Translations under genes and position numbers: made by a program | Notes under the pieces: generated by a model | What the model was told of the DNA's origin: nothing | Seen by the model: the letters and a program-made list of their open reading frames with translations, nothing else | The model's database searches: none | DNA from: Candidatus Sysuimicrobium calidum | GTDB taxonomy: Bacteria > Sysuimicrobiota > Sysuimicrobiia > Sysuimicrobiales > Sysuimicrobiaceae | Length of the DNA stretch: 64,000 nucleotides | Direction of reading: 5' to 3' | Assembly: GCA_031459935.1 (NCBI GenBank) | Contig: JAVKHN010000001.1 | Span: forward strand, 23,388-87,387 | Part shown: one piece after another, positions 53,632 to 54,379 of the stretch | Layout of the letters: every line of letters starts with the position of its first letter | How positions within the stretch are numbered: position 1 is the first letter of the stretch

Positions 53632-54379
53632 AGCCAGGACCGCTGTAGTTACGTTACCAAAATCCGGCTATATGCTGGGAAGTCCCGGGTATCCTGCGCT
53701 ACGCAGCCTGCCGAGAGCAGGTGCGTGACAATGCGTCAGGTGGGGACCATCAGCAGGAAAGGCTCCGGTGATCGGAATGCTGGACGTGAAGAAAATTCCT
53801 CCTCACATTGGGTACTACCTCGCCGGGTTCGCGGACGGCGAGGGGAGCTTCAACGTCAGCTTCCGCCCTCGGAGCGACGACCACCACCCCTGGAAGGTCT
53901 CCTTGTGTTTCAATATCTCGCAGCGCGACCGCGTGATCCTTGCCCTGTTCAAGCGTTACCTGCGCTGCGGTACCCTCCGCCAGCGCAGGGACGGGGTGTG
54001 GTATTACGAGGTGAATAACCTGAACGCGATCCGGGATCATGTGATCCCATTCTTCAAGCGGTTCAGGTTCCTCTCGACGAAGAAAAAGCGGGACTTCTCC
54101 AAGTTCTGCCAGATCGCCGAGTTGGTGCTGCGAGGGGAGCACAGGACCGAAGAGGGGATCCGCCGGATTCTGGAGATCCGGCGGGAGATGAATGATGGTG
54201 GGAAACGTCGCTACGAGGATGCCGAAATCCTAAGCCGATTTCGGCCCGGAGAATCCTCAGAGACTGTACGCCGGACTCCGGAGCCTTAGCTCCGGAGATG
54301 AGACAGTCCGACCTGCGTGGCGACACGCAGAGCGGGTAACCAATCCCGCCGCCCGGTAACACCGGGTCGTAACAAGGTG
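53632..54379 (+). mobile_element. Group I-type intron in 23S rRNA helix 69 (E. coli U1917/A1918 junction) carrying a homing endonuclease gene
   Basis: A 748-nt insertion breaks an otherwise colinear 23S sequence. 5' exon ends in T, insertion ends in G. Contains a LAGLIDADG ORF. Boundaries accurate to 1 nt because of the repeated A. Confidence 0.7.
53768..54289 (+). CDS. LAGLIDADG homing endonuclease (single-motif, I-CreI-like homodimer type), intron-encoded
   Basis: 173-aa ORF. LAGFADGEGSF motif near the N-terminus; basic DNA-binding character; located wholly within the 23S insertion. Confidence 0.85.
   Translation: MIGMLDVKKIPPHIGYYLAGFADGEGSFNVSFRPRSDDHHPWKVSLCFNISQRDRVILALFKRYLRCGTLRQRRDGVWYYEVNNLNAIRDHVIPFFKRFRFLSTKKKRDFSKFCQIAELVLRGEHRTEEGIRRILEIRREMNDGGKRRYEDAEILSRFRPGESSETVRRTPEP

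Follow-up and report, generated by a model that had tools for sequence, protein, structure and literature searches.

The question raised by this locus is what interrupts its 23S rRNA gene within helix 69. The window, by which we mean the entire 64,000-nucleotide stretch of DNA analyzed here, contains one visible rrn operon, in which Rfam matches place 16S, 23S and 5S in that order around the insert. The 23S gene is matched at full length by the bacterial large-subunit model (Rfam LSU_rRNA_bacteria, model positions 1-2925, 2657.9 bits). Its upstream exon reads ...CCGTAACTAT / ...GGCGGCCGTAACTAT and has its last base at 53631; the downstream exon resumes at 54380 and reads AACGGTCC / AACGGTCCTAAGGTAGCGAAATTCC. 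Colinearity with 23S gives an insert of 748 nt, preceded by a U and closing with a G, as the initial annotation had described. We set the numbering on E. coli K-12 rrlB (2904 nt), where the final T of CCGTAACTAT falls at position 1917; the rrl gene of E. coli G1/2, annotated at only 2860 nt, gives 1903. The break therefore lies at U1917|A1918 in helix 69, and the earlier placement at these two bases holds on K-12 rrlB. A break inside the loop of this helix would entail loss of intersubunit bridge B2a. We conclude that the insert, which sits in the helix 69 loop, very likely belongs to the L1917 lineage of mobile group I introns and encodes a LAGLIDADG endonuclease. The reading as a group I intron in helix 69 with a LAGLIDADG endonuclease, already put forward in the initial annotation, is carried by P1, P10, the terminal G, a covarying ribozyme core, an endonuclease-less relative at the identical site, and the sequence and fold of the encoded protein. 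Coordinates of the features are collected in Table 1.

Table 1. Features of the interrupted 23S rRNA gene, in window coordinates; percent paired and pairs changed on both sides refer to the intron family.
Feature	Position	Strand	Details
23S rRNA host gene	51550-55363	+	Single interruption; Rfam LSU_rRNA_bacteria match
Group I intron (very likely), L1917 type, 748 nt	53632-54379	+	23S colinearity; equal boundaries at 75/80 related loci
5' exon end GTAACTAT, P1 5' strand	53624-53631	+	Pairs with 53645-53652; 8/8 standard pairs
P10 guide AGGACCG	53636-53642	+	Pairs with 3' exon CGGTCCT, 54382-54388; 7 bp
Internal guide sequence GTAGTTAC, P1 3' strand	53645-53652	+	GTAGTT in 74/75 family members
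P3 5' strand TCCGGC	53663-53668	+	Pairs with 54270-54275; 99.2% paired; 5/6 pairs changed on both sides
P4-P5 domain with extension	53674-53754	+	Helices P4, P5, P5a, P5b
P4	53674-53678 / 53750-53754	+	100% paired
P5	53682-53686 / 53743-53747	+	86.8% paired
P5a	53693-53699 / 53733-53740	+	89.8% paired; 7/7 pairs changed on both sides
P5b hairpin	53701-53726	+	Weaker across the family; 73.5% paired
P6	53756-53758 / 54254-54256	+	Invariant; stem flanks the ORF
P6a	53763-53768 / 54246-54251	+	91.9% paired; 6/6 pairs changed on both sides; flanks the ORF
Predicted LAGLIDADG homing endonuclease ORF, single motif	53768-54289	+	173 aa from GTG 53768; in P6 loop
Dual-use segment, last ~15 ORF codons	54246-54289	+	Also P6a', P6', J6/7, P7 5', P3', P8 5'
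P7, 5' strand GACTGT / ACAGTC	54262-54267 / 54303-54308	+	98% paired; pseudoknot with P3
P3 3' strand GCCGGA	54270-54275	+	Partner of 53663-53668
P8 hairpin CTCCGGAGC-CTTA-GCTCCGGAG	54276-54297	+	80.8% paired; 9/9 pairs changed on both sides
P9 hairpin, GCGA tetraloop	54313-54330	+	99.3% paired; 6/7 pairs changed on both sides
P9a hairpin (peripheral)	54332-54349	+	Fully paired in window; 40% paired in family
P9b hairpin (peripheral)	54352-54366	+	Fully paired in window; 70% paired in family
Terminal G (omega-G), 3' splice site	54379	+	Last base is G in 72/75 family members
Intron-less H69 target sequence CGGCGGCCGTAACTATAACGGTCCTAAGGTAG			

The ends of the insert pair with the exons in the manner of a group I intron. 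P1 is formed by the exon end GUAACUAU and the guide GUAGUUAC, comprises 8 bp and closes on a U.G at the 5' splice site, where the U is E. coli 1917; this wobble pair is kept in all 41 relatives (41/41). The GUAGUU portion of the guide is shared by 74/75 family members, and a P10 of at least 4 bp can be formed in 74/75 members, reaching 7 bp in the window.

A UAACA motif lying 5-7 nt upstream of the 3' splice site is common to the family. When it was compared with the distal bases of the guide, as an alternative P1 would require, no covariation or correlation was found between the two. We also rejected the motif as a simple mimic of the L1917 exon, because introns at L1931 carry an identical UAACA. 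On a speculative and improbable reading, it might hold the 3' strand of helix 69 until ligation. The stretch of the window that contains it is mis-aligned by the Rfam large-subunit model as the 5' strand of helix 69.

Comparison with the Rfam group I model (RF00028, Intron_gpI), one of the checks proposed in the initial annotation, gave a divided answer. The 3' core of the insert is placed correctly on P7-P3'-P8-P7'-P9, but the window copy scores 29.0 bits (E 2.7e-5), below the gathering score of 50, with P1-P2 forced into the ORF. The low score is explained by the ORF itself (~480 nt), whose place in the P6 loop breaks the ribozyme in two. The endonuclease-less relative at the identical site (L046) passes the same threshold, scoring 60.9 bits over the full model. 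Because of the 29 bits and the misplaced P1-P2, we turned to ORF-trimmed introns and a hand-drawn structure.

The covariation set comprised 41 homologous introns from different genomes, trimmed of their ORFs by hand and aligned over 382 columns, and the structure tested on them was drawn from the window sequence. Standard pairs occupy 87.5% of 3238 cells, as against 35-40% when partners are slid by 1-3 columns, a difference inflated by the hand trimming and by the derivation of the structure from the window. The count of compensatory changes is free of such inflation, and in 61 of the 85 pairs both partners have changed. Covariation was scored at 0.410, compared with 0.06-0.11 for the slid controls, and none of 500 shuffles matched the observed values (0/500). 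Within the window, standard pairs run throughout P1, the P1 extension, P3, P4, P5, P5a, P5b, P6, P6a, P7, P8, P9, P9a and P9b; across the family, nearly every pair covaries in P3, P5a, P6a, P8 and P9. Support for P9a and P9b is limited to the window and its close relatives since these hairpins are poorly alignable across the family, and P2 is absent because the gap between P1 and P3 is no more than 10 nt.

P7 deserves separate mention. Two of its pairs covary (UA/CG, 31/10; AU/GC, 36/5), and its first pair, a G-C at alignment columns 219/283, is invariant (41/41) and is a candidate for the guanosine-binding pair. The Rfam model places two conserved segments, CAGAGAC and GAUAxAGUCC, on its P7. 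The strands AGACTGT and ACAGTC, noted at the outset as P7-like, thus proved to contain P7 itself, GACTGT / ACAGTC, which covaries in relatives. RNAalifold, run on a MAFFT alignment, recovered P1, P3, P4, P5, P5a, P6, P8 and P9; it missed P7, as this helix is part of a pseudoknot. The fold of the insert, a check that had also been suggested, comprises P1 and a P3-P9 core with a P3/P7 pseudoknot, supported by covariation.

The ORF embedded in this core ends with a TAG at 54287-54289, inside the P8 loop. Here the earlier description of a 173-aa ORF with a single motif stood in part: the ORF and its LAGFADGEG motif are real, but GTG 53768 is an unlikely start. Translation probably begins at ATG 53777 (170 aa), where homologues begin; upstream of this codon, GGTGATC (53767-53773) shows complementarity to the 3' tail of 16S rRNA. 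Pfam LAGLIDADG_1 (PF00961) matches residues 18-116 with 68.1 bits (cut-off 23.1; E 1.4e-18). The motif occurs once, its acidic residue E25 is invariant in 28 homologues, and all residues invariant in the family are kept in the window protein (57/57). An AlphaFold model (pLDDT 86.4, pTM 0.81) shows the order alpha-beta-beta-alpha-beta-beta-alpha (H12-25, E26-34, E42-52, H55-65, E69-72, E78-82, H85-98), with E25 at the end of the helix spanning 12-25. Across the family the C-terminal tail, ESSETxRR, hardly varies, yet the model predicts residues 162-173 to be disordered (pLDDT <50). Against relatives dN is 0.13-0.23 and dS is saturated (>2), so that dN/dS is ~0.1 or less; these rates place the ORF under strong purifying selection. 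A lookup of the exact 173-aa product in the assembly index returned no match, probably owing to a different start in the gene calls or to masking of the rRNA region.

Both sequence and fold relate the protein more closely to I-OnuI-type domains, I-TnaI and I-Vdi141I than to I-CreI or I-CeuI, whose family the initial annotation had proposed for a search. PDB sequence searches matched I-OnuI-family enzymes with E down to 1.7e-35, and Foldseek matched I-Vdi141I, I-TnaI and the I-OnuI family with probability 1.00. By structure, the protein comes closest to two homodimeric intron enzymes, I-Vdi141I, which ranks first, and I-TnaI. Like the window protein, I-TnaI (PDB 5gkk; Foldseek E 1.3e-10, TM 0.70/0.82, 34% identity; sequence search E 7e-18), presumably the enzyme of one Thermotoga L1931 intron, is a LAGLIDADG enzyme with a single motif that belongs to a group I intron in bacterial 23S rRNA; the two sites lie 14 nt apart, and its target site differs. 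LAGLIDADG introns at L1931 are listed for Thermotoga naphthophila and T. neapolitana (PMC1995217 Table 1). Centered on the counterpart of E. coli 1915, the presumed intron-less target of the window enzyme has a modest symmetry (6/9 positions), which arises because the site encodes the helix 69 stem.

The family to which this protein belongs is large. We found 3748 protein matches to the endonuclease. Close relatives are encoded by at least 170 species genomes, which span ~18 phyla, and an intron occupies the identical site in 75 of the 80 other genomes examined, well outside what chance would give. Such a spread at one site requires horizontal homing. The nearest protein relatives, at 75-81% identity, come from Chthonomonas, Fimbriimonadales and Armatimonadota metagenome-assembled genomes (MAGs). 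Related loci often contain a second intron 14 nt downstream of the L1917 intron; the L1931 enzymes in these loci share only 24-34% identity with the window enzyme and cluster among themselves, apart from L1917 enzymes. The view that rRNA introns with homing endonucleases are rare in bacteria is thus outdated, since the L1917 type has been known since 2007 (PMC1995217) and is present in the genomes counted here.

By site and anatomy, the window intron matches the L1917 lineage. Haugen 2007 (PMC1995217) described L1917 introns from Synechococcus sp. C9 (743 nt, encoding a single-motif LAGLIDADG protein of 181 aa) and Thermotoga subterranea (774 nt, encoding one of 168 aa). Compared with the window intron by their published description, these introns (DQ421380, AJ556793) have in common with it the site (after E. 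coli 1917), a similar size (748 nt and 170-173 aa in the window), an ORF that begins in the P6 loop and continues across P7, P3 and P8, the absence of P2, a complex P5 (P5-P5b, 53682-53747 in the window) and IC1-like P7 and J8-7 sequences. The window intron differs in its host, a member of the Armatimonadota, and in an ORF that stops in the P8 loop, whereas theirs stop in P9. LAGLIDADG_1-encoding insertions at 23S position 1917 (23IS6), with reported group I similarity, are also found in CPR/Patescibacteria, in which this position is a LAGLIDADG_1 hotspot (PMC11270868, 2024). They have the site, Pfam family and single-domain architecture of the window element, whose host is not a CPR bacterium. 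The characterized enzyme I-ShaI derives from the neighboring class 23IS7, not from 1917 (PMC11270868). No L1917 endonuclease is marked as functional in Table 1 of PMC1995217, and our literature search found none that had been characterized biochemically.

Two further systems lie close by in the rRNA. The L1925 intron of Tetrahymena thermophila (IC1) occupies the same rRNA neighborhood and likewise has an extended P5, but it is nuclear, possesses P2/P2.1, lacks an ORF and is inserted 8 nt further downstream. Its core motifs, which we take to be CAGACUAAAUGUCGG and AAGAUAUAGUCGG, are similar to CAGAGACUGUACGCCGG and GAUGAGACAGUCC of the window. Cbu.L1917 and Cbu.L1951 of Coxiella burnetii are, like the window element, bacterial 23S group I introns, and Cbu.L1917 has a like site; it is assigned to another subgroup and, to our knowledge, carries no endonuclease gene. 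A LAGLIDADG gene is present in the Coxiella L1951 intron (PMC1995217 Table 1).

Several other explanations for a long insert in a 23S gene merit consideration. In bacteria, 23S rRNA is commonly left in fragments by the excision of intervening sequences, and insertions of at least 100 bp are reported in 18.5% of non-CPR RefSeq 23S genes (PMC11270868). We nonetheless reject as highly improbable the idea that RNase III excises the insert without ligation and leaves the 23S rRNA fragmented: the single long stem typical of such sequences is absent, the insert ends pair with the exons (P1, P10) rather than with each other, the insert contains a complete covarying group I core together with the U.G and terminal G, and a break in the helix 69 loop would destroy B2a. 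Known intervening sequences in other bacteria occupy helices 9 and 25. That of Coxiella sits in helix 45 (PMC4990558). Equally improbable is an assembly or binning artefact in which a foreign, intron-bearing rRNA fragment was joined in, even though conserved rRNA operons are often mis-assembled in metagenomes and the window comes from a MAG lineage. We dismissed mis-assembly in view of a complete, colinear operon (16S, 23S, 5S) with a full-length 23S model match and of junctions that are both base-exact; moreover, the closest relatives of intron and endonuclease belong to the host phylum, and several Armatimonadota contigs, up to 177 kb long, carry the flanking genes. An archaeal-type bulge-helix-bulge intron could be thought of because I-Vdi141I, the enzyme closest to the protein in structure, comes from an archaeal rRNA intron. 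The host is a bacterium, however, and the flanks pair as P1 and P10; a group II intron is at odds with the lack of a reverse transcriptase ORF, and no group II family appeared among Rfam matches for the region at E up to 10. Both were rejected, their joint probability being negligible.

A closer competitor accepts that the intron splices but holds that its endonuclease no longer supports homing, being inactive or a maturase, and that the element is inherited only vertically. Vertical descent would fit nearest protein relatives that fall in the host phylum (75-81% identity). Some organellar LAGLIDADG proteins are maturases, which provides a precedent for such a role, and the existence of endonuclease-less introns such as L046 means that the ribozyme can dispense with an ORF in cis. 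That same core without an ORF also argues against a maturase. Against a loss of homing we set the retention of E25 and of every one of the 57 family-invariant residues, the dN/dS of ~0.1 or less (itself compatible with either function), and the scatter of the family over ~18 phyla at one site. We therefore regard this alternative as unlikely and favor a mobile intron with a homing endonuclease.

For this mobile intron, we infer splicing, enzyme activity, dimer state and cleavage site from the sequence and propose the following series of events. The rrn operon would be transcribed together with the intron, whose RNA would adopt the P3-P9 core and dock P1 (GUAACUAU and GUAGUUAC) with U1917.G at the cleavage site, and an external guanosine would then attack after U1917. 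P10 (AGGACCG and CGGUCCU) would align the 3' exon while the terminal G at 54379 moves into the G-binding site of P7, and exon ligation would yield the junction GUAACUAU-AACGGUCC and an intact helix 69, which is needed for bridge B2a. The predicted endonuclease (170-173 aa) is expected to work as a homodimer. Its presumed substrate is helix-69 DNA that lacks the intron and is partly palindromic (CGGCCGTAACTAT|AACGGTCC); once this is cut, repair templated by an intron-bearing copy would spread the intron by homing. Since helix 69 is blocked until the intron is removed, and since splicing consumes free guanosine, it is conceivable that the intron is not only a parasite but also a checkpoint, making the finishing of the 50S subunit (bridge B2a) depend on temperature or on how much guanosine/GTP is available; we consider this a long shot.

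Our findings leave the current understanding of group I introns unchanged, the L1917 family having been described already. They do have practical consequences for the locus: with its 23S gene interrupted, the 748 nt have to be removed in rRNA annotation, in primer design and in phylogenetic pipelines. The enzyme is compact and strongly conserved, of an expected homodimer type, and has a 23S target that is near-universal in bacteria; it could interest meganuclease engineers. The ORF within the 23S gene is best seen as an intron-encoded homing endonuclease and not as a cellular gene, and the L1917 pair of intron and endonuclease, present at the identical base in ~18 bacterial phyla, is not a curiosity of three or four genera.

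The 23S rRNA gene in the window spans 3814 nt and gives a full-length Rfam match (model positions 1-2925, 2657.9 bits). It is colinear up to ...GGCGGCCGTAACTAT, whose last base is 53631, and resumes at 54380 with AACGGTCCTAAGGTAGCGAAATTCCTTGTCGGGTAAGTTCCGACC, leaving a 748-nt insert that is preceded by a U and ends in G. In E. coli K-12 rrlB numbering, position 1917 falls on the final T of CCGTAACTAT; the break therefore lies in the helix 69 loop, at the site named L1917. Junctions, length, flanking bases and position are all as the initial annotation described them. The intron-less junction sequence was matched in the 23S of 5426/5426 E. 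coli genomes (80-99% identity). The rrl gene of E. coli strain G1/2 (reference locus L081, NZ_CP060083.1 4959574-4962433) has an annotated length of 2860 nt, not 2904, and is unsuitable for numbering because it puts the helix 69 junction at position 1903. Elsewhere in the operon, the 16S-23S spacer (51322-51549, 228 nt) contains no tRNA gene, the sole tRNA of the window being tRNA-His (347-437). Four proteins encoded nearby have exact NCBI matches, which assign the window to an uncultured Armatimonadota bacterium. Relative to the Rfam bacterial model, 23S domain I (~51880-52200) is slightly expanded, by ~16 nt near model position 283, ~25 nt near 313 and ~20 nt near 584; with later expansions, these make up ~140 nt of excess length on top of the intron.

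Coordinates of rRNA genes and hand-drawn intron helices in the window
Feature	Gene or 5′ strand	3′ strand	Remark
16S	49759-51321		one rrn operon in window
23S	51550-55363		one rrn operon in window
5S	55427-55543		one rrn operon in window
P1	5′ exon end GUAACUAU	GUAGUUAC 53645-53652	terminal U.G wobble; hand pairing
P10	AGGACCG 53636-53642	3′ exon CGGUCCU	hand pairing
P3	53663-53668	54270-54275	
P4	53674-53678	53750-53754	
P5	53682-53686	53743-53747	
P5a	53693-53699	53733-53740	
P5b	53701-53711	53717-53726	hairpin
P6	53756-53758	54254-54256	
P6a	53763-53768	54246-54251	
P7	54262-54267	54303-54308	
P8	54276-54284	54289-54297	hairpin
P9	54313-54319	54324-54330	hairpin

An insert of this kind could also be an intervening sequence at which the 23S is fragmented, an intron of another class, or an assembly artefact. 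The Rfam group I model scores 29 bits on the window against a threshold of 50, a shortfall that arises because the ORF sits within the ribozyme; its sensible alignment is limited to the 3′ half (P7, P3′, P8, P7′ and P9). An ORF-less L1917 intron of 416 nt in a Chromatiales MAG (L046) reaches 60.9 bits over the whole model, above threshold, and the Rfam helix assignment there agrees with our hand-drawn one. In the window, helices P3-P9 can be drawn with standard pairs throughout, and P2 is absent because P1 and P3 are only 10 nt apart.

The same structure was examined in an alignment of 41 related introns with the ORF trimmed out. It pairs 87.5% of 3238 cells, against 35-40% with partners slid by 1-3 columns, a percentage favoured over the slid controls by the derivation of the structure from the window sequence. 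Compensatory changes are independent of that origin: both sides change at 61 of 85 pairs, and the covariation score is 0.410 (0.06-0.11 when slid). None of 500 shuffles reached the observed values. Nearly every pair covaries in P3, P5a, P6a, P8 and P9; P7 has two covarying pairs, the remainder being invariant, and family-wide support for P5b, P9a and P9b is weak. Of the 80 retained loci, 75 carry an intron between exactly identical exon bases, with the guide GUAGUU and a P10 of at least 4 bp each in 74/75 introns and a terminal G in 72/75. With P1/P10, the covarying core and the Pfam match described below, the proposal of a group I intron with a LAGLIDADG gene in helix 69 proves right. The three alternatives are unlikely.

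The introns lacking a terminal G (L003, L004 and L009, from Fraserbacteria, Bipolaricaulota and Acetothermia MAGs) have A as their last base, ending in ...AGAAGACA or ...CAGAGACA before AACGGTCC; their P10 still spans 7 bp and their ORF is intact. In the window (GTAACA, 54369-54374) and in 74/75 related introns, a conserved UAACA motif (or CAACA/UAACG) precedes the 3′ splice site by 5-7 nt; it is present in L1931 introns too and showed no covariation with the guide sequence. The resemblance of the window segment GGUCGUAACAAGGUG (54365-54379) to the helix 69 5′ strand is so close that the Rfam LSU model takes it for that strand.

The sole plausible long sense ORF of the insert (53768-54289, GTG start, 173 aa) is housed in the P6a loop, with its stop codon inside the P8 loop. 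Its product contains one LAGFADGEG motif and matches Pfam LAGLIDADG_1 (E 1.4e-18) and solved LAGLIDADG enzymes (best E 1.7e-35); both halves of two-domain I-OnuI-family proteins align to it separately, and the single-domain enzymes 5gkk and 3e54 are also matched. A confident AlphaFold model (28 homologues; pLDDT 86.4, pTM 0.81) has the element order expected for LAGLIDADG, alpha-beta-beta-alpha-beta-beta-alpha. In structure it comes closest to I-Vdi141I, from an archaeal rRNA intron, and to I-TnaI, which we take to be the enzyme of a Thermotoga L1931 intron. The true product is probably 170 aa, because homologues start at the methionine equivalent to ATG 53777 and GGTGATC (53767-53773), complementary to GAUCACC in the 16S 3′ tail of the same organism, precedes that codon. 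A decayed endonuclease is unlikely. Comparison with relatives gives dN of 0.13-0.23 with dS saturated (>2), which indicates that the ORF is maintained by protein-level selection. Its ~15 terminal codons (54246-54289) double as P6a′, P6′, J6/7, P7, P3′ and the P8 5′ strand. The encoded tail, ESSETxRR, is near-invariant across the family yet predicted to be disordered (residues 162-173), which fits conservation imposed by RNA, not protein.

In 27 of the 75 genomes with an L1917 intron, a second intron follows AACGGTCCTAAGGT only 14 nt further downstream, at site L1931; the window has the L1917 intron alone. These twin-intron loci include L001, L006, L010, L011, L013, L015, L017, L018, L022, L028, L030, L032, L036, L037, L041, L042, L046, L048, L053, L064-L066, L074, L075, L079 and L080. 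Most of these L1931 introns are short (194-364 nt) and ORF-less. An endonuclease ORF is present in eight, of which seven are of L1931 type (24-34% identical to the window enzyme) and one, in L046, is of L1917 type. Introns at L1931 are also listed for Thermotoga (PMC1995217). Eight further loci are interrupted again at ~1938-1960. In L046 (JALTLF010000174.1), the ORF-less L1917 intron (1931-2346 of the locus) is followed by an L1931 intron (2361-3129) whose own guide (GCCTTAG) pairs with the exon sequence CTAAGGT. This second intron has an L1917-like core and an enzyme that shares 73.5% identity with the L1917 enzyme of twin-intron locus L066 and 66% with that of the window. From these sequences, it looks as if the endonuclease gene, or core plus gene, moved between the twin introns via shared core sequences.

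From this anatomy and established group I and LAGLIDADG behavior, we infer the following scheme. The core would fold within the pre-rRNA, an external guanosine would attack after U1917, and the terminal G would then replace it, joining the exons and restoring helix 69. The endonuclease, translated from precursor or excised intron, would act as a homodimer that cuts intron-less helix 69 DNA, with repair of the break then inserting a copy of the intron. Because it encodes a hairpin stem, this target is partly palindromic, with symmetry at 6/9 positions about the base equivalent to 1915. The insertion point, 2 nt off the axis, coincides with the expected position of a 4-nt staggered cut.

Haugen et al. 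(2007, PMC1995217) report L1917 introns from two hosts: one of 743 nt with a 181-aa enzyme in Synechococcus sp. C9, and one of 774 nt with a 168-aa enzyme in Thermotoga subterranea. Judged by their description, both share the anatomy of the window intron. A 2024 survey lists 1917 among the CPR-bacteria sites carrying LAGLIDADG_1 genes; I-ShaI, which was characterised there, belongs to a neighboring site class, not 1917 (PMC11270868). Neither PMC1995217 nor PMC11270868 lists a biochemical test of an L1917 enzyme. The window enzyme has 3748 protein database matches, the top ones 70-93% identical. With each species represented by a single genome, relatives were encoded in at least 170 species; hosts among those listed include Armatimonadota, Chloroflexota, Bipolaricaulota, Fraserbacteria, Omnitrophota, Elusimicrobiota, WOR-3, Planctomycetota, Acidobacteriota, Nitrospirota, Gemmatimonadota, Bacteroidota, Gammaproteobacteria and others. 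The suggestion that such introns are rare in Bacteria does not stand, given relatives in this many phyla and species. Twin introns 14 nt apart, the apparent endonuclease swap and the variants without a terminal G are features of related loci, not of the window, whose element is of the known L1917 kind and not a rarity.
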